Source of the DNA: Asterionella formosa
Taxonomy: Eukaryota
DNA: 64,000 nucleotides
Reading direction: 5' to 3'
NCBI GenBank assembly: GCA_002256025.1
Contig: NKIB01012718.1
Location: 1-64,000, forward strand
Shown one piece after another: positions 12,751 to 54,699 of this stretch. The translations under genes and the position numbers were made by a program. Below the pieces are notes generated by a model. The model was not told the origin of the DNA and made no database searches. It worked only from the letters and a program-made list of their open reading frames with translations. Each line of letters opens with the position of its first letter. The first letter of the stretch is position 1.

Positions 12751-13275
12751 TAGGTGAACTTTGAAATAGCATCAGTACATAATTTTTGGCGAGATCTTGC
12801 TTCGAATTTTTTTTACTATGCCAAATAATCAGATTTCCCCCGAATTTCCGAGTCTTTTTAGCCTAGTTAAAAAACTTAAGTTCCTTTCTGCAGTTTCTGA
12901 CCAGATCCTATATACTGACGATATATAGAGTGGACCTACACCCCTACTTTGTACGAAGACTGTATGTAAGCATTTGGAAAGGGTGTGTATTGGTGAAAGC
13001 TCCGTGGAGCGTTGTCCAATTTTGATTTATATGTGGAAAGTATGTGTTTGATTACCGGTAGTCTGAATCAATTTTTATCTTTTTAACCCTACCTCCAAAT
13101 GTACTGCTCGGGGGAGCACTTGGGATACCGGTATATATTATTCGACAGCTCCTTGACGTCCATATTTCTCCCTCGGTGGTCCAATGAAAGGTTAGCGCCA
13201 TTTGACCACTACATAACAATTAATTATTACAGCCTTCCATACACAGCACATCCAATTCATTTTCAAGAAAAGCCG

Positions 13276-15087
13276 ATGAAGATTGGTGTTTCAGCCTTAA
13301 CCCTCCTTGTACTCCTATTCCACCAACAAAACGCGTTTGCAGCCCCTTTTCTGCACGGCACGAAAGATAGTATGTCATCTTGGACTGTAAAGTGCACGGA
13401 CGTGCCTCAGTTTGACGCCCTTCAATCGGCTGCGGATCACTTTCTATGCGACGACCAGTTACACCTTCGAAATCTTTGCAATGATTCAGCTCGTTGCGCT
13501 GGATTGACTGCTCTGCATCTCTCGCCTGGATCCAGAAAAATAATTCTAGATTACAGTCGTCAGCAAGTGACAGGTGAAACTATGGAATTGCTCTTTGACT
13601 TGGCAGACGCAGTTGGATTTACAGACCGACGTGCTGCAATGTGGTCTGGAATGCGCATCAACACGACTGAACGTCGAGCTGTTCTCCATCACGTTCTTCG
13701 CATGCCGAAAAACTATAATATACCAGACCATCCCTTAGTTGCGTCCAAGCTCAAGGATGTGCACAGGGTAAGATCTCAAATTAAAGACTTTACTGACAAT
13801 GTACGCAATGGGCTACACATGAGCGTGACAGGAAAGAAATTCAAGAATTTTGTTTGCATTGGCATCGGAGGATCACAGCTAGGACCAGAGTTTGTTTACG
13901 AAGCCCTCAAGCCAGACCCCACTGCCGAAGCTGCAGCTGGAGGAAGAACCTTACGGTTTTTGGCCAACGTTGACCCAATTGACTTTCACTTATGTACACG
14001 AGATTTGGATCCTGCCGAAACATTGGTTATCGTTGTAAGCAAGACTTTTAGGACAGTTGAGACCATGTTAAACGCAAGACTAGTTCGCATGTGGCTCGTC
14101 AACTCGTTGGAAAATGAAGACCGACTCGAGGAAGATATCGTTGCCAGACACATGGTCGCTGTTAGTTGCGACGTGGAGCAGTGCATTCAATTTGGAATTC
14201 CACAGTCGAGAGTCTTTGGATTTTGGGACTGGGTTGGAGGTCGCTTTTCTGTTTGCTCTGCTGTAGGCTTGGTGCCCCTCTCGCTTCAATACTCTTATGA
14301 AGTCATGGAGAATTTCCTGGATGGAGCTTTCGACGTAGATGAGCATTTCTTTTTCGCTCCGCTAAGAAATAATATTCCCCTCATTCTCGGACTCTTGGGT
14401 GTCTGGAACTCAACCTTTATGGGATATGGTACAAGGGCTCTTCTTCCATATGCTCAAGCTCTCAAACGATTCCCGGCTCACATTCAACAAGTTGACATGG
14501 AAAGCAACGGGAAACGGGTTGCCTTGGATGGAACACCGTTGCTGCATCATAGTGGAGAAATTACTTTTGGAGAACCTGGAACAAATGGTCAACACTCCTT
14601 CTTCCAACTCATGCACCATGGACGTGTGATACCTGCGGATTTCATTGGCTTTATGGAATCTCAGCGACCCGTTGACATTGGACCAATAAGCAATCACGAT
14701 GAACTCATGTCCAACTTTTTCGCGCAACCCGATGCCCTAGCTTATGGCAACACAGTGACAGACTTGCTTCAAGAAGGAGTACCCGAAGAACTTCGAGAGC
14801 ATAGGGTATTTAGCGGAAACAGACCTTCCTCGTCAATTCTTATGACAAAGCTTGATGCTTTTGCGGTGGGACAGCTTTTAGCGTTGTACGAGCACAGAAC
14901 AGCTGTGCAAGGATTTATTTGGGGCATTAATTCATTTGATCAATTTGGTGTGGAATTAGGCAAAGATTTGGCAAAGCAATGCCGAGCGCAATTGATAGCA
15001 TCCCGCAACAATGGTGCGTCCGTGCAAGGCTTCAATGGATCAACTTCGTCCTTGTTGGAGGCCTACCTAGCTCATGGAAAACCTTAA
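13276..15087 (+). CDS. GPI: Glucose-6-phosphate isomerase, probably plastid-targeted
   Basis: [59 protein letters not shown] and FDQFGVELGK motifs. N-terminus MKIGVSALTLLVLLFHQQNA-FAAP looks like a signal peptide with Phe at +1. Confidence 0.92.
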   Translation: MKIGVSALTLLVLLFHQQNAFAAPFLHGTKDSMSSWTVKCTDVPQFDALQSAADHFLCDDQLHLRNLCNDSARCAGLTALHLSPGSRKIILDYSRQQVTGETMELLFDLADAVGFTDRRAAMWSGMRINTTERRAVLHHVLRMPKNYNIPDHPLVASKLKDVHRVRSQIKDFTDNVRNGLHMSVTGKKFKNFVCIGIGGSQLGPEFVYEALKPDPTAEAAAGGRTLRFLANVDPIDFHLCTRDLDPAETLVIVVSKTFRTVETMLNARLVRMWLVNSLENEDRLEEDIVARHMVAVSCDVEQCIQFGIPQSRVFGFWDWVGGRFSVCSAVGLVPLSLQYSYEVMENFLDGAFDVDEHFFFAPLRNNIPLILGLLGVWNSTFMGYGTRALLPYAQALKRFPAHIQQVDMESNGKRVALDGTPLLHHSGEITFGEPGTNGQHSFFQLMHHGRVIPADFIGFMESQRPVDIGPISNHDELMSNFFAQPDALAYGNTVTDLLQEGVPEELREHRVFSGNRPSSSILMTKLDAFAVGQLLALYEHRTAVQGFIWGINSFDQFGVELGKDLAKQCRAQLIASRNNGASVQGFNGSTSSLLEAYLAHGKP

Positions 15088-15295: not shown

Positions 15296-15846
15296 CGTCA
15301 CCGGTATTTGATTGTAGTCGATCAGGAATGTATGATGAATGTTATGGACCCAGGAACCTGCTACTCCTGGTACGCGGAGTACCTGGTGCTCCACAGGATC
15401 ACATAGGCAATACTCGGAGCACTTAATAATAGACCCACCGGGTACGTACCTGGTACCAGGGTACCAGTACCGGAATTATGTTCGAACACATTTTTGCCAC
15501 CACCGATAGGAATGCAGCATAATACCACGGAGTACCCGGTGCTGGTGCCAGGTACCTGGTACCACCTGGTACCTGGTACGATACACTGAGCAGGTACGGT
15601 AATATAATTCTCGTTCAATTTGTGGGGTTAGGGTTTTATCACAAAAGAATTATTACTACCAGTATGCGACCCCACATCATCATCATCGTCTGTCTGGATC
15701 GATCGAGATCTATCGACCAGAGGCCATGGCCATTTCCTGATCAATAGAACCTGGTACCTTGATACCAATTACCTCGCCAAAACCTGTTCCACAGAACAAA
15801 ACGGTGCTAGCTGCTGTGCGCTCCGTCCTAACGAAATTGAGTCACC

Positions 15847-19903: not shown

Positions 19904-20935
19904 TATAATTACTGGTGCCATATGATGATGTGTGTAAGTGATTTATTAAAGGTGTTGGAGATTTTTACATGAGATATAAGGCAAAAGCAAACGAGGACAA
20001 ATGTGCAGACAAGCACACTCGTAAGTAAAATCTGACAATTTGCCCTGCATCACATCGAAGTCCTATGGTTGTGATGGTTGAAGGACTAGCCAAGTGGCAG
20101 GAAGGGTTTTAAAAATAAGGATTTGGCTCGGTTTAGTGATCTCATTGTTTGTGGATTCAATTCGACTTGGCCATGTGAAGGCTTCTATGCCATTCAGTAG
20201 GAACTACTAAATTGGAGTCCTACGAGTCTTTCCTCATCTGGGGTTACTTCTGGTACTTGGAACACAAATACTGGTAGTAAGTCACACTTCGTAACTTAGC
20301 TACACTTATTACCAAATTCTACGAGTACATTACTCAAATTAGTTATAGTAGTACAAAAAGGTATCACCATGCTATGCATGCATATATCTGACCACATAAA
20401 CGCAGTTACTGATGACTGAGGCGGGACCAGGGAATCTTGATTCGCAGAATTGAACAAGTGGACCTTCAGCATCCATGTAGACTCTCAACTCTCGACCATC
20501 AGTTTTCGACAGAAGAGCCTGGTCTCTTTTCTGCCCACCGGTAGGTATGGTACCAGGTACCTGGTATGATCTAGCGGCATATTAGACGCTAATATTTGTA
20601 AAAACAACCAGGTACCAGGTACCGAAGTCTACCGGTATACGGTACACAATAACGTGGTAGACAACCAGTACTGGGTACCAGTATAATCAGCCACATCTAT
20701 TTTTAGTATAATCAGCCAAATATATTTTTGGAAAACTAAGACGATACTACCTGGTACCCAAAACTCAACCTGGTAACCTGGTCCAGGTACCGGTACCAGG
20801 ATTTATACCAGACGGGTTTAGTTTATTTTTACTGACCGGTGAGGAGACTGGTTCTGGTACCTGGTAGACTACCGGTAGAACCCTGTGAGCCCAACCTCAT
20901 CTCGCTCATCGTTGACGATCGCAAGAAAGAAAGAA

Positions 20936-23900
20936 ATGACCACGGAAGAAACAACCGCGAATGTCAAGGCACTGGAATGTGGCCCTAGCCTGGCCGAGAT
21001 GGAACATGATACGGACAATGAACTCATTAACCACGTGCACTCCAGGTATTCTGTAGCAGCTGGTACTGTCAGCTCACTCCGAGATTCTTTGGCAGCTGAT
21101 GTTTTGACTACTACTGTACCCTTTGAATCGTTCACATCTCCTTTTGAAACTCCCGCGTCCATGAAATCAACACAGAAATTCTTATCCGTACCACTTGTCT
21201 ATTGCGACCAAACGGCATCCAATCGTCCTGTTCAATCCATTGAAGATTACGTGCAACAAACCTGTCTTCCATTCTACGGAAATACCCACACCAACACTAG
21301 TATTACTGGATCTCAGTCGACAGCCTTTGTTGCCGAAGCTCGACAGATTGTGGCGGAAGGAACAAATGCAAAAATTACAGGCAAGGCCAGTCTGGACGTG
21401 GTTCTCTTTGCGGGCAATGGAACGACAAGTGCTGTCGAGCTACTGATTGACTGCTTGGGACTGAAGTATGCTCCGCAAGGAACTAAACCAGTGGTATTTG
21501 TTGGACCATACGAACATCATTCCAATTTGGTACCGTGGAGGGAATCTGGGTGCGAAATTGTAATGGTACCTGAGCGAGAACACAAAGTTGACCTCCAGTC
21601 ACTGGCTGACTTGCTGCAAAAGGGGGAGTACGAATGCAGACTCAAAATGGGAACCTTTACTGCTGCTTCTAATGTGACTGGAAAAGTCAGCGACGTTGAT
21701 GCCATTGCAGCAACACTGCACCGCCACGGGGCCCTCGCTTTTTTTGATTATGCCACTGGCGCTCCCTACCTTCCGATGAATATGAACCCCCCTCCTTCAG
21801 TTCAATATCCATCACCTTCACTTATTGCCAAAGACGCCATTTTTTTTAGCCCGCATAAGATGCTAGGTGGTGTTGGAACACCTGGTGTATTGATTGTAAA
21901 GAAGACACTTGTCAATCAAGTGAATGCACCTTCAAGGTCTGGTGGAGGGACAGTATTTTATGTAACCAATAATCGTCATCGCTTTTTGAGTAATCGTATT
22001 GAAAGATACGAAGGAGGCACTCCAAATGTGGCGGGAATAATAAGGTGTGGATTAACTTTCCTTCTGAAACGAAAAACAGAGGAGAGATACCTGCTGGCAG
22101 CAGAGAAAGAAGGAGTTCCACCAACTCTATTAGAATACGAGTATTCGACATATCGCCAGGTGGTGAGAACTCTTAAAGAACGAGCACCAAATCTCCTCTT
22201 GCTCGGAGATGGGTCATCAGAGCACCTTCCCATACTTCCTTTTTTAATTCGTTGCGGTAGACGGTTTCTTCATTACAATTACGTTTGTGCTGTATTGAAC
22301 GACGTCTTTGGCATTCAATCCCGTGGTGGATGTCAGTGTTCAGGGCCCTACTCTCAGCGGTTGTTGGGATTGACGGAGATGACTCACGATGGCATTGAGG
22401 TCCCCAACGGAGTAAATGAGCAAGTTGAATATGCGTTAGTTCACTTCAAGGAACGAGCCGAGTTGCTACGACCTGGGTTTACTCGATTAAGTTTGCCTTT
22501 CAAGGGACTTCGTGATGAAGAAGTAGCCTATGTGGTGAAGGCTCTTGAGTGGGTTTCAAACCATGGGTGGGCTTTGATGTGCCAGTATCGCTGCAACCAT
22601 CGAACAGGAGAATGGAGACACTCTAATCGACAAGGGAAACCCTTAGGAACACAACGAAAGTGGCTTAGCCATTATGATATTTTGCCGACCGAGAAGCAAG
22701 ACACTCCAATGACAATTGAAAACAAACGAACAGTTCTTGAAGTGCTTAACCAGACAATGTTGAATGCCGATGCACTATTGTACGAAGCAAAACGAGACCA
22801 TCGCTTTATTGCCCAAGCCTTCAAGATGAATGAAGCCGGTGAGAGCCTTGGACAAGACGATGCCATGCTAGAGCAGCTCCGATGGTTTGTTTATCCCAAA
22901 GAGTGTTCGATATGGTTGACCCAAAAACTAGAATCGCCTCCGGAGACTCGCTCACATGAGATCCTTGGGGCCCTTAGACCACTCGTGATTGGTCTTGATG
23001 AAGTGGACCCGTTGGATGTCGAAAGCGTGAAGAGTGCGTTAAGCGGAGTTGAATTGCAGCAGTCGTATCAACGAAAAAGGAAAGCAAATAGTGCAATTGT
23101 TGACCCTCATGGTGACCATGTTACAAAAGGTCCTGTGGCACTCGTTGAGCCTGGGATTGCAACCCTTTTCGATTTCCAGGATGGGGAACATGGAGGTGCT
23201 GCTTCACTCGAGGAAATCCGAGCTGGCTTTGAGGATGGAGAAGTGTCTAGTAAATGTGTCATTTTTGATGCATTAAATGATAGTTGGCTCCCAATAGTCG
23301 AATTTTTTCTGGAAAAGAACAATGCGATACAGTTAACAACAGGTCCACTTCCAAGTAACGAAATGTTTGGGCCTGCAGAGCGGGTTCCTTCCTCAAACGA
23401 AGTTCATGCTTTCGGGCAAGTGAACGATACCAGAAATCAGAAGAAGAAACCGCCGCGGGACTGCTCTATGTGGGGACATGGTAATAAATTTAACCCTGTC
23501 AATTCAACAAATGCACACGGAGTTGAAGACGAGAAGAAAGAATCCAGCGAAGACGTGCACCTTAATCAGAATAATGCAATTTGGAAGCCATCGACGAATG
23601 GTTCTAAGGGAAAGGGCAAAAGGGGAAAGGGCATCAAACCTCCAGTGAAGCTGATGCGGATGATTACCCAAGCTATGGTGCAATGGAATATGATCGAAGA
23701 AGGTGATCGATTGCTGCTCGGTCTCTCGGGGGGGAAGGATTCTATGACTCTTCTTCATTGCCTGCTTGAGTTGCAAAGAAAACTTCCCATTAACTTCATT
23801 ATCGAGGTTTGTACTATTGATCCAATGACTCCATCGTTTGATCCCAGTCCACTTATTCCCTATGTTGAGTCTCTGGGTTTGAAATTTCATTACATCCGAG

Positions 23901-24736
23901 ATGATATTGTTGCGCGGGCAAATTCCAGTGGCAAGAATGGCAACGTAGTTTCATCACTCTGTGCTTTTTGCGCTCGGATGAAACGTGGAAATCTTTACAC
24001 TTGCGCCCGTCAAAATAGCTGTAACAAGCTCGTCTTGGCTCAGCATTTAGACGATTGTGCTGAATCCTTTCTCATGAGTGTGATGCACAATGGTTTCCTT
24101 CGCACCATGAAAGCAAATTACAGGATCAATGTGGGCGATATGTCGGTTATCAGACCAATGGTTTACTGCCGTGAAAGCTTAATGACTGAGTTCGCCAAAT
24201 CAGCCAATCTTCCTGTTATCAACGAGAACTGTCCTGCATGCTTTGAGGAACCCAAAGAGAGAGCGAGGATCAAAAAATTACTCACAAGAGAAGAGACTTT
24301 ATTTCCAAATTTTTATGATAATATTCGCAGGTCACTCATTCCTTTGATGCACGAGGACGCTACAGCAATTTTACGATGCTACACAGACGAGGCTATTTCT
24401 AAGAGTAAAAAGGAAAACAATAAGAAGATTTACCCGAATTATCCCGACAAAGTTAAGGTCAGTACCGATGAGAACCAGGCCTTGTCCGTTGATCATGTCG
24501 ACCATATAGGATCCGGCAGTGATGAGCACTACGAGAAACGCGCAATAGCCAGCATCTCCGAGGCCTCCGACGACGATTTGCTTATGGAGCTAGCCAGGCG
24601 AAAGGCAGATAAATTTCGACTCTCCGGTTCGATGCAGAAATCAAGAGATGATGGCTTGCCTTTGGACCCAACCGGCCAAGTTTGCTCTTTGAACGGAGGC
24701 GACAGAAGCATTCCTTGTCATGAGTTGATGGAGTAA
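20936..24736 (+). CDS. Fusion protein: class V PLP cysteine desulfurase-like domain + GYF-like linker domain + TtcA-type tRNA 2-thiolation PP-loop ATPase
   Basis: YCDQTAS, YGNTHT, GPYEHHSN, AASNVTG, FSPHKMLGG (PLP Lys) and QSRGGCQCSGPY. C-terminal LGLSGGKDS, CAFCARMKRG, LAQHLDD, IRPM and CPAC. One uninterrupted ORF; first ATG at 20936. Confidence 0.88.
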   Translation: MTTEETTANVKALECGPSLAEMEHDTDNELINHVHSRYSVAAGTVSSLRDSLAADVLTTTVPFESFTSPFETPASMKSTQKFLSVPLVYCDQTASNRPVQSIEDYVQQTCLPFYGNTHTNTSITGSQSTAFVAEARQIVAEGTNAKITGKASLDVVLFAGNGTTSAVELLIDCLGLKYAPQGTKPVVFVGPYEHHSNLVPWRESGCEIVMVPEREHKVDLQSLADLLQKGEYECRLKMGTFTAASNVTGKVSDVDAIAATLHRHGALAFFDYATGAPYLPMNMNPPPSVQYPSPSLIAKDAIFFSPHKMLGGVGTPGVLIVKKTLVNQVNAPSRSGGGTVFYVTNNRHRFLSNRIERYEGGTPNVAGIIRCGLTFLLKRKTEERYLLAAEKEGVPPTLLEYEYSTYRQVVRTLKERAPNLLLLGDGSSEHLPILPFLIRCGRRFLHYNYVCAVLNDVFGIQSRGGCQCSGPYSQRLLGLTEMTHDGIEVPNGVNEQVEYALVHFKERAELLRPGFTRLSLPFKGLRDEEVAYVVKALEWVSNHGWALMCQYRCNHRTGEWRHSNRQGKPLGTQRKWLSHYDILPTEKQDTPMTIENKRTVLEVLNQTMLNADALLYEAKRDHRFIAQAFKMNEAGESLGQDDAMLEQLRWFVYPKECSIWLTQKLESPPETRSHEILGALRPLVIGLDEVDPLDVESVKSALSGVELQQSYQRKRKANSAIVDPHGDHVTKGPVALVEPGIATLFDFQDGEHGGAASLEEIRAGFEDGEVSSKCVIFDALNDSWLPIVEFFLEKNNAIQLTTGPLPSNEMFGPAERVPSSNEVHAFGQVNDTRNQKKKPPRDCSMWGHGNKFNPVNSTNAHGVEDEKKESSEDVHLNQNNAIWKPSTNGSKGKGKRGKGIKPPVKLMRMITQAMVQWNMIEEGDRLLLGLSGGKDSMTLLHCLLELQRKLPINFIIEVCTIDPMTPSFDPSPLIPYVESLGLKFHYIRDDIVARANSSGKNGNVVSSLCAFCARMKRGNLYTCARQNSCNKLVLAQHLDDCAESFLMSVMHNGFLRTMKANYRINVGDMSVIRPMVYCRESLMTEFAKSANLPVINENCPACFEEPKERARIKKLLTREETLFPNFYDNIRRSLIPLMHEDATAILRCYTDEAISKSKKENNKKIYPNYPDKVKVSTDENQALSVDHVDHIGSGSDEHYEKRAIASISEASDDDLLMELARRKADKFRLSGSMQKSRDDGLPLDPTGQVCSLNGGDRSIPCHELME

Positions 24737-24890
24737 TCCTTACGATAATTCTTTCTATTCACTTGCATAGAAGGACCATCTAGCATATCAGTTGATCTAA
24801 TTTTGGGTGAACTCTTTTGTTCTGCTTGCACAGCACCGTATCTTACCAAACAACCTTTTATCTATCTCCTTTGTGAAACATTGCCATTTA

Positions 24891-26747
24891 CTACCTGTTG
24901 GACACGAGAATCGCCATTAAAATTACCAATGTGATTGTCGACACTACAATCAATACCATGAAGCCAATTTCCAACTTCGATCGCTGATAGATGGAACTGG
25001 GTGTAGAGATAGTTTCTTCTTTGCTTCGAAATTTCAAGGTGGGCATTTGAAAACCCATTTCCAAATCATTCGTTGTATAAGTAGCCTTGGTAGCATTCTC
25101 CCCGTCATCCTCGATCTGAGTGCCATCATACATTGTGGACACATCTTCTTGATCCACAAATGGAATGTTCACAGGTATCACCCGCATGATGAAGACATCA
25201 GCGGCAATCTCTTTGGTGATCTGTTGGTCAACGGTAGAGAGGTCGCTGGATGACGACGCGACATCAAACGACGTGACATATTGAACGTGTTCGAGTGCCA
25301 TAGTACTAATGTTGAGAAACGGTAGACTGTGTTCTCGTGGGACTGGAGGAAGAGGTCCCAAACAAGGTAGATTGTTCAATGACTTCGCAACTCTATTGCT
25401 TCCCGTCATCCTAGAATCACAAGTCAAGGGCGGTAGAATCACATCTTCGTCTTCGTGGACAGTACTATCGTAACTTGTTTCTTCAGATGTAAAACTTTCC
25501 GAATCTACTCGCTCGGAAGGGAAGCGCTGCAACTCTCGCTGAGAAGGTGTTGCAGGCCGTCTTGTGGGAAGATGTGGCTTTGAGCCAGTGCTATCAGCCT
25601 TGCTTTCAGACTTGCGTATAACCTTGCTTCCAGTAGTGTGTGGCAGGATCATGGTACCCCTTTCATGCTGGCTTGCTTCTTCTGAATTCGAACTTTTTGA
25701 ACCTGGACTCTCCGAGGCGGAGCTTTGCAACTCGCGTTGCGAAGGTGTTGCAGGACGTCTTGTGGGGAGATTTGGCTTTGAACCAGTGCTATCAGCCTCG
25801 CTCTCCGTCATACGAATGTTCTGGCTCCCAAAAGTTCTTGCTAGAGTCATTTTATCCCCTGCGTTGTGCATAGGCCACCCACGTCGTGTGCCTTCAGAAC
25901 GATCAGCATTTGAGGCACAGCTTGAGAGATCACCTGATCGAGAATTTGTGTTCAGGACGGACAACAAGGAACCATCATGCGATCCTGACTTTTGCGGTGA
26001 AAGATAGGTTTCTGATTCATCGGAATCGTAGGTCTCAGAAATATAACTCTCTGTTTCACCAGTGCTTAGGGTGAACGACTCTTCTCCACTAGCTTCACCG
26101 TCAGAATGGTATGTTTCAGACTCGCCTGTAATGAATGTTTCCAATTCGTCAGCGTCATCAGAGTCATAGCTACCAGATTCATACACTCCATCCTCTGCTT
26201 CTTTCACCAAGGTGTTCAAATCCGCGTTACTCTCTTCTTCGACGAGCGAAGTAACTTCAGTCGCTTTGCTTCCAGAGGTAGTCAGGCCAGTCTCGTGTGT
26301 AACCTCACTAATGGCGGAGCTGCCCAATGATACGTTTTCTCGTTTGCTGCTAGTGACCATCAGAAAGGCCTCATCAGAGCTATAGTCTGTTGATTGGGAG
26401 CCAGACCAACTTCCAGATCCATACTCGGTCGATTCCTCGGTGGAACCGTAGTCATGCCCGTCAAGAAGACTTGATAGAAGTTTGTTTCGACATGGTAGAG
26501 CCGCTCTTTTCACTGGAAGTTCCCCATCACTAGCATTCCGCAATCCCGACCCAGATGTGGACATAGAACCAATTGACTCAACAGATTTGATTGTGTACAA
26601 CTCCCGTGATATCGAGGACGAAAACTTTTGCCCCCGTTCGTTATCCAAGGATAGACTTTCAGAAGTGATTCTATGGGAGGCTCTAGCGGTTTCGGTTGGT
26701 TTCGGCATGGTGATATGAAATTTATGATCGTTCTCCTTTGTTGCCAT
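24891..26747 (-). CDS. Ser/Glu-rich low-complexity protein with a C-terminal transmembrane anchor
   Basis: 618-aa ORF ending IGFMVLIVVSTITLVILMAILVSNR. Internal repeat ADSTGSKPxLPTRRPATPSQRELQ occurs twice. Confidence 0.75.
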   Translation of the reverse strand: MATKENDHKFHITMPKPTETARASHRITSESLSLDNERGQKFSSSISRELYTIKSVESIGSMSTSGSGLRNASDGELPVKRAALPCRNKLLSSLLDGHDYGSTEESTEYGSGSWSGSQSTDYSSDEAFLMVTSSKRENVSLGSSAISEVTHETGLTTSGSKATEVTSLVEEESNADLNTLVKEAEDGVYESGSYDSDDADELETFITGESETYHSDGEASGEESFTLSTGETESYISETYDSDESETYLSPQKSGSHDGSLLSVLNTNSRSGDLSSCASNADRSEGTRRGWPMHNAGDKMTLARTFGSQNIRMTESEADSTGSKPNLPTRRPATPSQRELQSSASESPGSKSSNSEEASQHERGTMILPHTTGSKVIRKSESKADSTGSKPHLPTRRPATPSQRELQRFPSERVDSESFTSEETSYDSTVHEDEDVILPPLTCDSRMTGSNRVAKSLNNLPCLGPLPPVPREHSLPFLNISTMALEHVQYVTSFDVASSSSDLSTVDQQITKEIAADVFIMRVIPVNIPFVDQEDVSTMYDGTQIEDDGENATKATYTTNDLEMGFQMPTLKFRSKEETISTPSSIYQRSKLEIGFMVLIVVSTITLVILMAILVSNR

Positions 26748-28236
26748 TTACGGTCTCCTGTGCCGTCGAAGCGCCAATTATGTAAGTTGGATTGTTTGTC
26801 ATATTTGTGAGTAGTTTAGAGGCAGTAGCGGTGATGGAGCCAATTTTTCTAACTTACCGGGTTTTAACGTCCAACGCGACCGTTGAGATTTATTTTCGCT
26901 CGCACATGCTCCGTCATCATAGATCTTACATATTAATTCACATATGAATTTAACTGTCTATTACCTGGCTACTGTACCGTCATGTGAATAAAACCAGATT
27001 GAGATGCCTGTATGCTGTAGACTAGGGACACAGCTACAGTGGTATCCCGGTACCAGGTACCAGGTACCTGGTCCCAGCAAGGTGCGGTAGGAAGCAATTT
27101 TGCTGAAATGGACAACGTGACGCAGACAGGCGCTCAAAAAGACTACCGGTAAATTGAGAGCATCATCAACTCTCTCTTTGAATCAACAGAATCACGACTT
27201 GTTATTGACGTAAATGATTATTTCGTCTAAACACGGATCAAAACGAGAAAACACATGGAGCACTTGACATGTACTAATAGAATTCGGATGCCATGACTAA
27301 TAACATGTTTTGACCATTGGCCTGAAAATTTGTATACTAATCCTCTATCTCTCCTCCCTATTTGGCTGCTCCGAGAAATTAGGGGTATTGTTTTTGGTAT
27401 AGCGCAGTGAGATCTTGCTCAAATCAACGACTTGCTGGTCAGCACTTTCTGGGTGCCTTAATCCAATATCAAAATCACACACAGTCAGGAAATAGTTACC
27501 AGCAAGTCGTTAGATTGAGGATGTTCGTAAATCGGCTGCTCTGAGCAATCGAATTGCTTGCATAAATCATCATTGAAAAAATAGGTAAAAGTAAAATCCT
27601 ATGTAAATTGACAAAACCATGATGAAATATTTTTTATCTTGAATAGAAAAAATGGTGAAAATTTGTAATTATCGTGACAGATCGGCAAAGCAACAACAAT
27701 CTACCATGGCAGATGCAAATGGAAACCATTTAAGAGAAGAATTAGGAAAATGCTACTGTTCTACTGTACCAGAGGCCCATGCAAAGCGCCATGGCATCTA
27801 CTCTTGTGTTAAATGTGATAATTTTAGACTTTATTGAGCTTCTAAACCAGGTAGCCAAAAAAACCCAAGATGACTGTGGAAGGAGATTTCGTTGCTGTGC
27901 ACGCAATTTTGATGCTGATGATGGGGATCCAACAAGGCCTGTCACTACTAGCTATCTATGTTTCCTATTCATCCGAAAATCTAAAAACTACTCATTCTGG
28001 TTTGTTGCTGCGTGAGTAATATACATATTAATCCTCCAACAAAAAAAATCAAACCAATCAACAAAAATGTCAATTAAATTTTTTAGTACATTAAAGCTAT
28101 CCAATAATTGGACTCGGGCCCACCAAATAGATGGACACAATTAGTACCGGTTTTATTCGTCCGTACGGTACAACGGGACCTGTCTTTTCGTCAGCTGCAG
28201 CTCCCGGAACCCTAGGGACTACATGAAAAAGGCAAG

Positions 28237-31350: not shown

Positions 31351-34047
31351 TGTTAGAAAATGTGGAAACGGACTCAACAGACTATAATGAAGGTACTGAA
31401 TGGATTCAAGTTTTAGGACTCATCAGACTATTATGAAGGAACTGAATGGATTCATATGACTAAAAAGAAACAGACCAAGGCCACGTCGTTGGCCAAGAAA
31501 GCGTCACCAACAAGGGTACCAAAATAGGTACCAGTTGCACTATGTAACATATGTGCTATGCTCATTCTTTTGTAGTTATCTGGTTCACATGACTAAAAAG
31601 AAACAGACCAAGGCCACGTCGTTGGCCAAGAAAGCGTCACCAACAAGGGTACCAAAATAGGTACCAGTTGCACTATATAACATATGGGCTATGCTCATTC
31701 TTTTGTAGTTATCTGGTTTACAGAAAAAAGCAGCAAGCCTCCCCTGTATTAGCTGCTGAGGAGTTTTAATTCGGCACTGCGGAAATGCTCCAAAATCAAC
31801 AAAATGGGACCAGACTCACTGCTATTATCAAGCAAGTCAAGAGCATGTATGTGAAACAGGGTTTTAACCTCACAGCATTACTGATGGATGGAAAATTTGA
31901 ATCACTACAAGGTGATCTAGCTAGTCTCAACATTACATTGAACACCGTAGCCAGCGATGAGCATGTGCCAGAGGTTGAACAATATATCTGCACAGTCAAG
32001 GAACGAGCACAGTGTGTATACAACATGCTGCCATTAAACAAATGTCTGCAAGAATGACCATTGAAATGATCTACTACAGTGTTTTCTGGCTAAACAGTTT
32101 CCCTCCCACTGTTGGAATTTACGACATGCTCAGCCCTCGTGCAATTTTGATTTGCTCCAAACTGGAATACACAAAACACTGTCAACTTGAGTTTGGCACA
32201 TACGCTCATGAAGAACATGACAATTCCATGGCTACTCGTACCACAGGCGCCATTGCTCTACAACCCACTGGTAATGCTCAAGTGCATACTATTTTTAGAG
32301 CTTAACTACTGGGCGAGTCTGCAACCGCAATCACTGGACAGCGCTACCAATGCCTGCAGAGGTTATTGACCGGGTTCATGTGCTTGCCCGTCGCACCGTT
32401 GGAGCGGGAGCTGCTGGACTAGCATTTACAGACCGAATTGGAAACCCTTTCATTGACCCAGCCAATGATGACAGCTCCAACAATGAGACATATACCCCTG
32501 ACACCTCTGACATGGATGACAATTATGATTCTGATGATGATGACACTGATAGTGAACAAGTAAACATGTCCAAGAAAGGAGGAAAACAAATCCTGTATGT
32601 TGATCTGAAGAAAGCCCTATATGGAACACTTCAGGCTGCCCTGCTATTCTGGAAGAAACTAACATCGCAGTTGGAAACATGGGGTTTCATTATTAACCCA
32701 TATGGCTCATGTGTCATGAATAAGATGATCAATGACAATCAGTGCACCATACTCTGGCATGTAGATGATTTAAAGATATCTCATGTGGAACATGAGGTTG
32801 TATCTGCAATAATCAAGCAACTGGAGGCAACATTTGGGCTAGAGGCCCCTCTAACAAAAACACGAGGAAAAATCCATGATTATTTGGGCATGATAATCGA
32901 CTTTAGCAAAAAAGGAAAGGTCAAAATATCTATGAAGGGTTACATTGTCAGGATATTGGCGGATCTACTACCTGAGATGGATGGGGATGCTGCTCCCCCA
33001 CTGGCATCAAATCATTTGTTCAAAGTAAATGAGCTTGACTCTATTAAGCTAAACACTGAAGAGGCGGTGCTGTTCCATCATACTGTGGCCAGACCACTAT
33101 TTTTATGCAAACGGGCTTGGCCTAAAATTCAAACTGCCGTTGCGTTCCTATGCACAAGAGTGAAATGTCCAGATGAGGATGACTACTACAAAAAACTGTG
33201 TCTTGTTATGAAATACTTACAAGGAACAATCAATATGCAGCTGACATTAGAAACAGACAACGTCAAGATCGTAAAATGGTGGGTTGACGCCTCGTTTGCA
33301 GTGCACCCAGACATGAAGAGTCACACTGGAGGACGAGCAATGACCCTAGGCAAGGGCATCACATATGGCACATCAACCCGACAGAAAATTTAAAAAAAAA
33401 GTTCAACCAAGGGTGAGCTTGTAGGGGTGAATGATGTAATGCCTCAAGTTCTCTGGACTAGGTACTTTTTGGAAGCTCAGGGATATACAATTTCTGACAG
33501 TGATGTAGCAGGATAACCAGATTGCAATCCTATTGGAGAAGAATGGAAAAGCATCCAGCAGCAAGCATACTCGAGACATCAATATTCGATATTTTTTGTG
33601 ATGGATTGGATTGCCTCTTGTGAGGTCTCTGTGCAATACTGCCCAGCTGAACACATGATTGCAGATTTTTACCAAGCCCCTTCAGGATGCAGTTTTCAAG
33701 AAATTTAGGGACCAGATTAAGAAAGTGGATCCTACAAACTCAAGCTTGCAGGATCACAGGAGTGTTTTAGAAAATGTGGAATCGGACTCATCAGACTATA
33801 ATGGAGGTACTGAATGGATTCATGTGACTAAATAGAAACAGAACAAGGCCACGTCTTCGGCCAAGAAAGCATCACCAACAAGGGTACCAAAATAGGTGCC
33901 AGGTGCACTTTATAATAATGTGGGCTATGATCATTCTTTTATTGTTATCTGGTTTACATCGATAAAGCCTCCCCTGTATGCTTGTATTCTGGACGTTGCT
34001 GTCTTATTTTTCACAACTGAACTCGAGTCACACTTGTGGATTTAACA
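31351..34047 (+). mobile_element. Internally deleted Ty1/copia (CoDi-like) LTR retrotransposon
   Basis: TGTTA...TAACA termini flanked by a CTCTC duplication (31346-31350 and 34048-34052). The 3' LTR (33763-34047) follows GATCACAGGAG. Remnants of integrase (EHVPEVEQYI), RT (KALYGTLQAALLFW, HVDDLK) and RNase H (WWVDASFAVHPDMKSHTGG). Confidence 0.92.
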
Positions 34048-52399: not shown

Positions 52400-54067
52400 T
52401 TACTTGCGATTGGCCTTGTAGTAGTTGATCAATCCATTGGTGGACGAATCATGAGAAGTGACTTTGTCTTCACCAGCAAGCTCAGGGTAGATAGTCTGAG
52501 CCAACTGCTTTCCAAGTTCCACACCCCACTGATCAAATGAGTTGATGTCCCAGATGGCCCCTTGGGTAAAAATCTTCATCTCGTAAATGGCAATCAACGA
52601 TCCCAACGTTCGAGGGGTCAGCTTTTGGAATAAAAAGGAGTTTGAAGGACGGTTGCCTTCAAAGACCTTGTGAGGGACGAGTGCCTCGAGAGCAGCATCG
52701 TCCATTTTGCCAATGAGCTCGGCACGGACTTTCTCCGCAGATTTACCAAAGGCCATGGCCTCGGTTTGGGCAAAGTAATTGGACAACAAGATTGGGTGAT
52801 GGTCAACAGGAGCATTAATAGTTTCGGTCACCTTGTTGTGCGTTTCAATTGGAGCTAAGAAATCGCAAGGAATCAACTTAGTTCCCTGGTGAATCAATTG
52901 GTAGAATGCATGTTGTCCATTGGTGCCAGGTTCTCCCCAAATAATTGGTCCAGTCTCGAACAGGACCTTTTCGCCCTGCTTGCTAATGTACTTTCCATTT
53001 GACTCCATGTCTCCCTGTTGGAAATATGCAGCAAAACGGTGCATGTACTGGTCATATGGAAGGATGGCAACGGTCTGTGCCTTGTAGAAGTTGTTATACC
53101 ACAAACCAATCAAAGCGAGGGTCAACGGCAAATTTTCCTTGGAATCAGCAGCCAAAAAGTGTTGATCAACGGCATGAGCACCCGCATGCATCTCCATCCA
53201 GTTGTCAAATCCAATGGACAGAGCAATTGGCGTTCCGATAGCGGACCAGAGAGAGTAACGTCCGCCTACCCAATCCCAGAAACCAAACATATTGTTAGTG
53301 TCGATACCGAATGCAGACACCCCTGCAGCGTTCGTGCTGAGAGCAGCAAAATGCTTGGCTACCGCCGATTCGTCTTGGTGGGCGTCAACAAGCCATTGTT
53401 TGGCAGTACCGGCGTTGGTCATGGTCTCCTGAGTAGTAAAGGTCTTGGATGCCACTAAAAAGAGGGTCGTTTCGGGGTCGACCAGTTTCAGGATCTCAGC
53501 CACATGAGTTCCATCAACGTTGGAACAGAAATGCATGTGAAGGTCGCGTTTGGAGTAGGGTTTCAGTGCCTCGCACACCATGACAGGACCAAGATCCGAT
53601 CCACCGATACCAATATTAACAATGGTGTTGATAGGCTTACCAGTGTGTCCCTTCCACTCTCCGCTGCGGACAGACTCGGTGAATGCCTTGATACGAGCCA
53701 AAGTTTCATTCACCGCAGGCATCACGTCCTCCCCATCGACAAAAATAGGAGTGTTTGACTGGTTACGAAGAGCAACATGTAGGACAGCGCGGCCTTCTGT
53801 CGAATTGATCTTCTCACCAGTGTACATGCGCTTGGCCATTCCCATGACATCTTGCTGGTCGGCAAGCTTATAAAGAAGATCCATGGTCTCCTCAGAGATG
53901 CGGTTCTTGGAGTAATCCAACAAAATGTCTTCAAACTTCATGCTGAACTTGTCGAAACGGTCCGGATCCGATGCGAATTGATCTTTCATCTGAACATCCT
54001 TCGTAGACTCGAAGTGGGCTTCAAGCGCCTTCCAGGCATTGGTAGTAGAAACATCGAGCTTGGTCAT
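52400..54067 (-). CDS. GPI: Glucose-6-phosphate isomerase, cytosolic, E. coli/animal-like type
   Basis: [51 protein letters not shown] and [10 protein letters not shown] motifs; no presequence. Confidence 0.95.
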
Positions 54068-54699
54068 GGTGGTATAATATTGGTTTGTTCAAAGGTCTTG
54101 GTTTGTGTCCTCATTTTATCGTTAGTTTCGGTATTGCGAATCCTACATCAAAAGGAGCTACCGGTAGGCCGGTACGACAGACAATATCATAGGCAGATCT
54201 TCTTCTTGAAATGAGGGTAGACTACCAGGTACCTGGTACCAGTGACCAGGGGTACAAGATACCTGGTACCAGGTACCTGGTACCTGAAACAGAGTGTAGG
54301 CAGGATGCTGCGCGCTTAATGCAACGTTCTTTCCGGTCGTACGCACATGCACTGTTGCTTATGATCTGTCGTGCTATTTCTGAAAGATTTTCTTGGAGAC
54401 TGTACGTGCGTACGTGCTAGTGCACTGGAAGGTCCGGTAGCGCACGTTCTATGCGCACCTTTCAGTTTCGACGCACTCCTGCGTATGGATCATCTCATGC
54501 CTGGCAGACGAGATAGGCCAGCTTTCCATAAAAATAATATTCCTTAAGTAATATAAGGGAAATGTTACCGGGGTACTCTTATTGACCGATGACGATTTGC
54601 AGAATCAGTCTCTGAACACGAATCAGATTTGCTGACTGATTTACGTGTTCAGCAAACCGTCTTCTAGCTTTTGAATCAACATAGGAATCCTACCTTTCT

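Follow-up and report, generated by a model that had tools for sequence, protein, structure and literature searches.

Background

The closest described system is that of Aplysia, in which 2-thiocytidine at position 32 (s2C32) was found on tRNA-Lys(UUU) and the only TtcA homologue reported is a fusion, a protein of 1177 amino acids that BLAST resolves into a CsdA domain and a TtcA-like domain (bioRxiv 10.64898/2026.09.27.754811, 28 Sep 2026). According to the accessible passages of that preprint, to which all our statements about Aplysia are limited, the same tRNA also bears 5-methoxycarbonylmethyl-2-thiouridine (mcm5s2U), and fusions of this type are conserved in 28 molluscs and, as data not shown, occur in birds and insects. 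Here we analyse a gene of the same architecture from the diatom Asterionella formosa, located at positions 20936..24736 (+) of a 64,000-nucleotide (nt) stretch of its genome (the window; contig NKIB01012718.1 of assembly GCA_002256025.1, positions 1 to 64,000). In a single reading frame, the gene joins a pyridoxal 5'-phosphate (PLP) dependent cysteine desulfurase to a TtcA-like thiolase. It is a further diatom member of a widespread and recently recognised eukaryotic fusion family, within which it is ordinary, and by analogy with described systems we think it rather probable, with no great margin of confidence, that its product is a cytosolic, self-supplying bifunctional tRNA C32 2-thiolase of this desulfurase-TtcA family.

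On the bacterial side, three cysteines of Escherichia coli TtcA are essential and are the proposed ligands of a [4Fe-4S] cluster, and the enzyme in vitro needs that cluster, ATP, a cysteine desulfurase with cysteine, and dithiothreitol (DTT), as described in the accessible part of Bouvier et al. (PMC4081106). A first-pass annotation of the window, made from its letters and reading frames, had recognised the diatom fusion, knew of no characterisation of anything like it, and left its substrate as an unknown RNA. The accessible passages of the Aplysia preprint overtake both points: they tie the fusion to s2C32 in Aplysia tRNA-Lys, and from them tRNA C32 is the likely substrate. Beyond that preprint, our literature search found no paper mentioning a desulfurase-TtcA fusion.

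Gene structure and expression

A long open reading frame (ORF) on the + strand, to which all feature coordinates within the gene refer, runs from a GTG at 20885 to 24736. Its first ATG, at 20936, opens a coding sequence (20936..24736) of 1266 codons plus stop that specifies a protein of 1266 residues (P0001). This ATG is also the first one downstream of the 5' ends of the available RNA contigs (20724 and 20826), with no earlier ATG between. Seventeen RNA runs contain the stretch and carry lake or freshwater metatranscriptome labels, and four of them, from three studies, were compared with the DNA. A single 6135-nt contig from a poly(A) metatranscriptome (X2) spans 20826-25200, a single 4559-nt contig from a poly(A) run of a separate study (X5) spans 21046-25200, and a single 3162-nt contig (X1) spans 20724-23885. 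These contigs align colinearly with the DNA, those from X2 and X5 through both domains, and a splice joint appears in none of the four runs; we therefore see neither an intron nor an interruption between the PLP and TtcA domains. The single transcript assumed by the first-pass annotation is thereby supported at the level of assembled contigs, which are not proof of one molecule and which, in X2 and X5, extend into the convergent neighbouring gene. In other diatoms, MMETSP transcripts labelled 'type:complete' hold both domains. The gene is real, intact, expressed, nuclear and unspliced.

At window position 21975 the DNA has G and all four RNA runs have A, changing codon 347 from CGT (Arg) to CAT (His). 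Most relatives also have His at this position (alignment A1). Either the strains differ here or the window contains an assembly error. The minus-strand ORFs inside the fusion gene, all of 85-128 residues, were taken as chance.

The two enzyme domains

Pfam recovers a class V PLP domain (PF00266, Aminotran_5) at residues 88-381 with an E-value of 1.4e-32 and a PP-loop domain (PF01171) at residues 926-1095 with an E-value of 6.5e-14. The combination first recognised from the letters is thus well beyond chance, and it recurs in hundreds of full-length relatives; the motifs named at the same time (SPHK, RGGCQCSGPY, SGGKDS, CAFC, HLDD and CPAC) all lie at or near the places given for them. Across a set of 64 diverse family members (alignment A3), K308, C466, C468, SGGKDS, C1009, C1012, D1039, D1040, C1099 and C1102 are invariant in 64 of 64. 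An AlphaFold model covering residues 81-1266 has a mean predicted local distance difference test score (pLDDT) of 78.5 and a predicted template modelling score (pTM) of 0.61, and in it both enzymatic halves are well defined: most of the PLP half exceeds a pLDDT of 85, and the TtcA half is confidently folded.

The first half has a SufS/CsdA-type (type II) PLP cysteine desulfurase fold at residues 81-545 (21176..22570), as judged from Pfam, NCBIfam, PDB, AlphaFold and Foldseek. NCBIfam assigns residues 84-375 to the SufS subfamily TIGR01979 (E 6.6e-31), with CsdA as the next best model. In a PDB sequence search, 42 of 44 matches to this half are desulfurase-type chains (SufS, CsdA or CsdB; E down to 1.8e-18), and the Foldseek target TM-scores against SufS-type structures lie at 0.74-0.84, the matches listed among its top 50 ranks all being cysteine desulfurases or selenocysteine lyases. 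The motif SPHK (residues 305-308, 21848-21859) aligns on SGHK of solved desulfurases (8d8s, 8kg1), which makes Lys308 (21857..21859) the predicted Schiff-base lysine for PLP. The active-site loop RGGCQCSGPY, likewise placed by PDB alignment, occupies residues 463-472 (22322..22351), and its Cys468 falls on the persulfide cysteine of SufS in the alignment to 8kg1 (RAGHHCAQP).

The fold is followed by a mostly helical, family-specific extension of about 145 residues (546-690, 22571..23005) that carries GEWRH, RxWL and LRWFVYPKE, with GEWxH, RxWL and LRWFxxP as the conserved patterns. Residues G558, H562, R574, W576 and W650 are kept across the family alignments, the helices are modelled at a pLDDT of about 95, and a Pfam scan of residues 481-895 alone returned no match. 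Against the curated cut-offs, the PLP half scores 107.6 bits for TIGR01979 (cut-off 475.1), 75.6 for the SufS equivalog (661) and 71.6 for CsdA (607). Judged by its sequence, it is a distinct eukaryotic subfamily with an extension of its own. Standalone relatives of the PLP half, including the extension and about 630-660 residues long, appear in the ESM Atlas, most commonly in Streptophyta and Oomycota (score 0.78, a lead only), and a standalone PLP-half paralogue is mentioned for Aplysia in the accessible passages of bioRxiv 10.64898/2026.09.27.754811.

The second half is a TtcA-like PP-loop ATP-pyrophosphatase or [4Fe-4S] thiolase domain at residues 901-1163 (23636..24424), as assigned by hidden Markov models, BLASTP and the structural model. 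NCBIfam places TtcA (NF007972) at residues 904-1138 with 189 bits and an E-value of 1.1e-55, and BLASTP finds 33% identity to E. coli TtcA over 224 residues (E 6e-42). Competing PP-loop models score far lower: TilS_N reaches 61.2 bits (TIGR02432, cut-off 93.6) and the full-length TilS model 27.6 (606), NcsA 28.8 (500) and TtuA 25.4 (450). Within the 80 residues before the PP-loop there is no CxxC pair of the zinc-finger kind. The first reading of this domain as TtcA-type and lacking terminal zinc fingers therefore holds, and the domain is distinct from CTU1/NcsA, TtuA and TilS.

The PP-loop motif SGGKDS, expected to bind ATP and adenylate the target base, lies at residues 931-936 (23726..23743), and HLDD at residues 1037-1040 (24044-24055). 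CAFC (residues 1009-1012, 23960..23971) contributes Cys1009 and Cys1012, which correspond to Cys122 and Cys125 of E. coli TtcA. CPAC (residues 1099-1102, 24230..24241) contributes Cys1102, the predicted third iron-sulfur ligand, which corresponds to the second cysteine of the E. coli motif CNLC. The cysteines called C219 and C222 in PMC4081106, as far as the accessible part of that paper goes, appear to be C210 and C213 of the RefSeq sequence, the two numberings differing by nine.

Distribution and origin of the fusion

The closest relatives of the protein are other diatom proteins, at up to 75% identity, Thalassiosira and Phaeodactylum being represented among the relatives, and when the best 120 are inspected, 104 contain both Pfam families. 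Searching 1.84 billion cluster representatives brought 1185 matches at E <= 1e-30. We examined 142 representatives, and in 90 of these a chain of at least 880 residues has the PLP motif ahead of the PP-loop. The novelty implied when the fusion was first noted thus gives way to a wide distribution, with two-domain members named in diatoms, bolidophytes, oomycetes, labyrinthulids, alveolates, ciliates, Diplonema, a choanoflagellate, a sponge and a spider. A Vitrella protein (P0314), itself a match of P0001 at 2.7e-142 in three matched stretches, has further two-domain relatives in Chromera, Symbiodinium, Perkinsus, Amoebophrya, Cryptosporidium, Gregarina, Besnoitia, Blepharisma and Stentor, as well as in Diplonema, Salpingoeca, the sponge Oscarella, the spider Larinioides, several oomycetes and a labyrinthulid. 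Two-domain clusters in the ESM Atlas are commonest in Nematoda, Arthropoda and Oomycota (score 0.97-0.99).

A search for bacterial counterparts of the thiolase half yielded 569 confirmed stretches, of which the best 80 were kept. Among these, the closest prokaryotic kin are 16 loci (L002-L017) at 42-54% identity, compared with 32-37% for canonical TtcA, and where their taxa are named below class they are sulfur-oxidising gammaproteobacterial or Hydrogenophilales lineages. We also observe that these loci look like a distinct bacterial subfamily of short TtcA-like proteins, about 50% identical to the eukaryotic domain.

A tree of the TtcA domain was built from 44 rows (21 named eukaryotes, 22 of the 80 bacterial loci, and E. 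coli); it has no outgroup and was rooted at the midpoint only, so that it does not prove orthology to TtcA. In this tree, the eukaryotic domains form one clade (95/92) which joins the sulfur-oxidiser group (99/94), canonical TtcA standing separately (100/98). Stramenopiles are monophyletic (100/98), with the labyrinthulid branching first, then oomycetes, then Triparma plus diatoms, an order matching the species tree and indicating that the diatom gene was vertically inherited rather than recently transferred. An origin of both halves in the sulfur-oxidiser lineage was also considered and, on a search with the PLP half of the diatom protein as query, rejected: only two of five genomes have a match to it, at 30% identity at best, and these are ordinary SufS-like proteins.

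Linker and termini

The N-terminus holds an acidic motif, LECGPSLAEMEH, with a conserved Cys15 (20972..21007; alignment A1), which within the family is confined to stramenopiles as far as members are named. The pattern [EF]C..[SE]L.E occurs within the first 60 residues of 15 of the 64 members, all of them diatoms, Triparma, oomycetes or unnamed sequences, and takes the form ECGxSLAE in diatoms and FCEELEE in oomycetes. The first 40 residues contain eight acidic (D/E) and two basic (K/R) residues, and the highest 12-residue hydropathy in the first 70 residues is 1.27. With an acidic N-terminus and no hydrophobic stretch, there is no segment resembling a signal peptide, which fits a cytosolic protein and agrees with the first-pass annotation.

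Between the two enzymes, the model has disordered stretches at model residues 614-660 and 721-816, and these flank a small GYF-like domain (beta-beta-alpha-beta-beta-alpha) at residues 741-800 (23156..23335), predicted from the model and from homology at a pLDDT of 85-95. The module is 43% identical to a repeat of P0095 that scores 28.4 against a threshold of 25.8 for Pfam GYF_2 (PF14237), and when it is modelled alone GYF domains make up five of its seven best PDB matches, all of them weak (E 0.09 or worse); the module of P0001 itself has no GYF_2 match at E up to 0.1. Also in the disordered linker is a conserved basic, proline-containing motif, KKKPPRDCSMWG (23441..23476), whose diatom and Triparma versions share the consensus KKPxRDSSxWG.

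Between the TtcA domain and the C-terminus lies a conserved amphipathic helix, SDDDLLMELARRKADKF (24554..24625; alignment A1), at model residues 1132-1151 with a pLDDT of 61-71. The protein ends in a tail, CSLNGGDRSIPCHELME (24683..24733), that contains Cys1250 and Cys1261 and is predicted to be flexible (pLDDT <50). A Pfam search with the last 128 residues alone returned only Orbi_VP2 at a chance level (E 0.05). In alignment A1 the tail is conserved as CSLNGGxGxIPCxELME in diatoms and as FCTVDGTCEMFE in Triparma. Of 65 full-length family representatives, 26 have a C-x(2-10)-C arrangement within their final 30 residues, an enrichment over the 24 of 560 seen in control linker windows, and the named members with this pair are alveolates, Diplonema, ciliates, a labyrinthulid and a sponge. 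Two members, P0428 and P0456, have a C-terminal thioredoxin domain (WCVPC or WCPPC) in its place. As separate observations, P0083 (Nitzschia sp.) has an NYN nuclease domain and P0004 a Kelch motif, after or between the two enzymes; some of these four extra-domain members may be gene-model fusions.

We also considered whether the tail was inherited from bacterial TtcA, the E. coli end '...EEIPLQPACW...' looking alike. This was ruled out by the rarity of cysteine in bacterial tails: any cysteine is present in 1 of 15 tails among the closest kin and in 12 of 59 among canonical TtcA, and at least two in 3 of 59 canonical tails. The count excludes five loci that have at most one CxxC motif, as well as ORFs that reach no stop codon inside the locus retrieved.

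Genomic context

Six copies of the octamer CTGGTACC, which has a palindromic GGTACC core, cluster just 5' of the start codon (20549..20861, no strand assigned). The window contains 34 copies against 0.79 expected, a count matched by none of 100 shuffles. Sites include 20549-20861, 15450-15758, 27049-27063, 54233-54284, 38110, 1147 and 63904, among others, and copies bunch just upstream of the starts of the fusion gene, the CHORD gene, the minus-strand ORF 24891-26747, a phosphoglucose isomerase gene and Pex16. On sequence grounds, the octamer is a candidate promoter or transcription-factor motif of Asterionella formosa.

The neighbours identified with Pfam are ordinary nuclear genes (MCM, two phosphoglucose isomerases, CHORD, Pex16, an arginine methyltransferase and a cation-efflux protein) together with a copia-type reverse transcriptase fragment, and the 64-kb window holds no tRNA genes. 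The two phosphoglucose isomerase genes lie at 13099-15087 (+) and 52400-54067 (-), and one of them has an N-terminal extension of about 150 residues ahead of its phosphoglucose isomerase domain that may be a targeting sequence. The convergent neighbour of the fusion gene (24891-26747, -), which the RNA contigs cross, is a 618-residue ORF rich in serine and acidic residues, with the internal repeat SKADSTGSKP.LPTRRPATPSQRELQ present twice, a C-terminal hydrophobic segment and no Pfam match. The reverse transcriptase fragment, at 32350-33393 (+) (PF07727, 1.9e-09), is probably a decayed retrotransposon.

Proposed function

If the protein is a C32 2-thiolase that supplies its own sulfur, catalysis would proceed as follows. 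The SufS-type PLP domain would take sulfur from free L-cysteine and hold it as a persulfide on Cys468, as its conserved residues and fold suggest. The TtcA-like domain would carry a [4Fe-4S] cluster on Cys1009, Cys1012 and Cys1102 with one iron site free, and the PP-loop would adenylate C2 of cytidine 32 in some cytosolic tRNAs. By analogy with E. coli TtcA and the Aplysia correlation, sulfide bound to the cluster would then replace the activated oxygen to give s2C32. The fusion itself suggests that sulfur could move within the polypeptide or its dimer, making a separate IscS/NFS1 donor unneeded. The protein is probably cytosolic, as suggested by an acidic N-terminus with no hydrophobic segment and by the presence of the family in lineages that lack plastids.

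Several observations weigh against this reading. Type II desulfurases usually require an acceptor protein (SufE or SufU), and the PLP half scores far under the NCBIfam SufS cut-off (107.6 versus 475.1 bits). The TtcA domain is below its own equivalog cut-off of 272 bits (189 for the whole protein, 192.6 for the domain alone; the E. coli TtcA control scores 513.8) and sits with a bacterial sister group whose two scored proteins reach 213 and 224 bits against the same cut-off, apart from canonical TtcA; with such scores and a separate clade, the position or base specificity could differ. The cytosolic location is argued only from the absence of a presequence. Members examined from oomycetes, a spider, Salpingoeca and Cryptosporidium have no two-cysteine tail, so this tail is not universally essential, and some of the tail-less members could be gene-model truncations. 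Our literature search found no thionucleoside data for any diatom. In the accessible passages of the preprint, the link between fusion and s2C32 in Aplysia is correlative, with neither knockout nor enzyme assay (bioRxiv 10.64898/2026.09.27.754811).

A further elaboration, which we offer tentatively and regard as possible rather than probable, is that the protein contains its own sulfur shuttle or reductant. The flexible two-cysteine tail might carry or reductively release persulfide sulfur, so that the tail, or the thioredoxin domain, would move sulfur from the Cys468 persulfide as sulfide to the open iron of the cluster, and the whole would be an autonomous cysteine-to-s2C machine. The replacement of the tail by a thioredoxin domain in two members fits the DTT requirement of E. 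coli TtcA in vitro. If this were true, it would reveal an unrecognised iron- and sulfur-dependent anticodon-loop modification in the cytosolic translation of major primary producers.

The alternative that survives best, although we consider it unlikely, is that the PLP half serves the TtcA half to which it is joined, assembling or repairing the oxygen-labile [4Fe-4S] cluster there, while the sulfur inserted into RNA comes from elsewhere or from the cluster. The E. coli cluster is indeed oxygen-sensitive and decays to [2Fe-2S], and cysteine desulfurases supply both iron-sulfur assembly and thiolation, according to the accessible part of PMC4081106. Diatoms, moreover, are oxygenic. Three considerations speak against this alternative: Pfam finds no scaffold-like domain in the protein, eukaryotic cytosolic iron-sulfur proteins are normally matured by the cytosolic iron-sulfur protein assembly (CIA) machinery, and desulfurase fusions with MnmA and ThiI, classically cluster-independent thiolases, also appear in the ESM Atlas as leads.

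Somewhat less probable again is a thiolase half directed at something other than tRNA C32, whether another position, another base or another RNA. The sub-threshold TtcA score and the clade separate from canonical TtcA leave room for this, and the GYF-like domain and basic linker motifs could recruit other partners. TtcA, however, is by far the best PP-loop family match, the cluster ligands and HLDD are conserved, and Aplysia s2C was mapped to position 32 in an animal for which, in the accessible passages of the preprint, the fusion is the only TtcA homologue reported.

Two other explanations seem to us very improbable. The polypeptide might be a precursor whose disordered linker (model residues 614-660 and 721-816) is cleaved to release desulfurase and TtcA as separate proteins, an idea raised in the accessible passages of bioRxiv 10.64898/2026.09.27.754811; the persistence of the fusion in very distant eukaryotes is nevertheless an argument for selection on the linkage itself, and the diatom linker contains folded and conserved modules. 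That the enzyme works in a plastid or mitochondrion on bacterial-type organellar tRNAs, as might be supposed of an otherwise bacterial enzyme whose PLP-half matches include a plastidial plant SufS-type desulfurase (Nfs2, PDB 4q75), is hard to credit given an acidic N-terminus with no signal peptide or transit-like stretch behind the first AUG of the RNA (20936), the occurrence of the family in oomycetes, ciliates, Cryptosporidium and animals, which lack plastids, and the presence on the s2C32-bearing Aplysia tRNA-Lys(UUU) of mcm5s2U, a modification of cytosolic tRNA.

The preferred reading, a cytosolic C32 2-thiolase with its own desulfurase, matters because s2C was regarded as absent from eukaryotes until the 2026 preprint, and because neither genetics nor biochemistry has yet been applied to the enzymes put forward as its makers. 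Diatoms are ecologically important and easily transformed, and here they hold an expressed, intron-free, intact and vertically inherited member, making them a convenient system in which to ask whether the fusion makes s2C32, in which tRNAs, and how sulfur passes from a SufS-type desulfurase to an iron-sulfur thiolase within one chain. The tail-or-thioredoxin pattern and the bacterial sister group offer concrete hypotheses on mechanism and origin.

Comparison with known systems

The PP-loop, the three-cysteine [4Fe-4S] site and HxDD are shared with the TtcA of E. coli and Salmonella, as is a supply of sulfur from a PLP cysteine desulfurase (PMC4081106, accessible part). The bacterial enzyme is a standalone protein of 311 residues served by the housekeeping type I desulfurase IscS, whereas in the diatom a type II SufS-like enzyme is covalently attached. 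The TtcA-like proteins of sulfur oxidisers (Thiofilum, Acidithiobacillus, Halothiobacillus, Thiotrichaceae, Thiohalomonadaceae) have ENCPACF and AQHLDD in common with the diatom domain, but in the two loci read they are standalone proteins of about 260 residues, and a PLP domain is neither fused nor adjacent there.

In its fold and active-site residues the PLP half resembles the desulfurases of the SufS-SufE, SufS-SufU and CsdA-CsdE systems. It differs from them in its loop, RGGCxC in place of RxGHHC, and in the additional extension of about 145 residues. A sulfur acceptor may be built into the fusion protein.

Cytosolic, iron-sulfur-dependent 2-thiolation of tRNA by a PP-loop enzyme, as proposed for the diatom protein, is the business of CTU1-CTU2 (Ncs6-Ncs2) with URM1. 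By contrast, the diatom protein has no zinc-finger CxxC pairs and no ubiquitin-like thiocarboxylate carrier, and its score for NcsA is 28.8 against 500.

Private desulfurases coupled to PP-loop thiolases are known from Bacillus subtilis, where YrvO-MnmA and NifZ-ThiI are dedicated pairs. Fusions in the ESM Atlas, at scores of 0.82-0.86 and as leads only, join PF00266 to MnmA in Myxococcota, to ThiI in Bacillota and to PAPS_reduct in archaea. The coupling is the same as in the diatom protein; the thiolase families are different, and so are the targets (uridines U34 and U8).

The nearest system remains the Aplysia 'IscS-TtcA' (CsdA-TtcA; LOC101861551), which we compared by setting its published residues against the invariant columns of alignment A3, the family link running through protist, sponge and spider members. 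The Aplysia linker is called poorly conserved, whereas in that of the diatom conserved motifs accompany a folded GYF-like module, and the conserved two-cysteine tail of diatoms does not figure in the accessible passages of the preprint. In both proteins, a COG0520/CsdA-type PLP domain precedes a TtcA-like domain in a chain of about 1000-1300 residues, and both have the PLP lysine, the C-x-C pair (Cys448/450 in Aplysia, Cys466/468 in the diatom), SGGKDS, CSFC or more generally CxFC, and CPAC.

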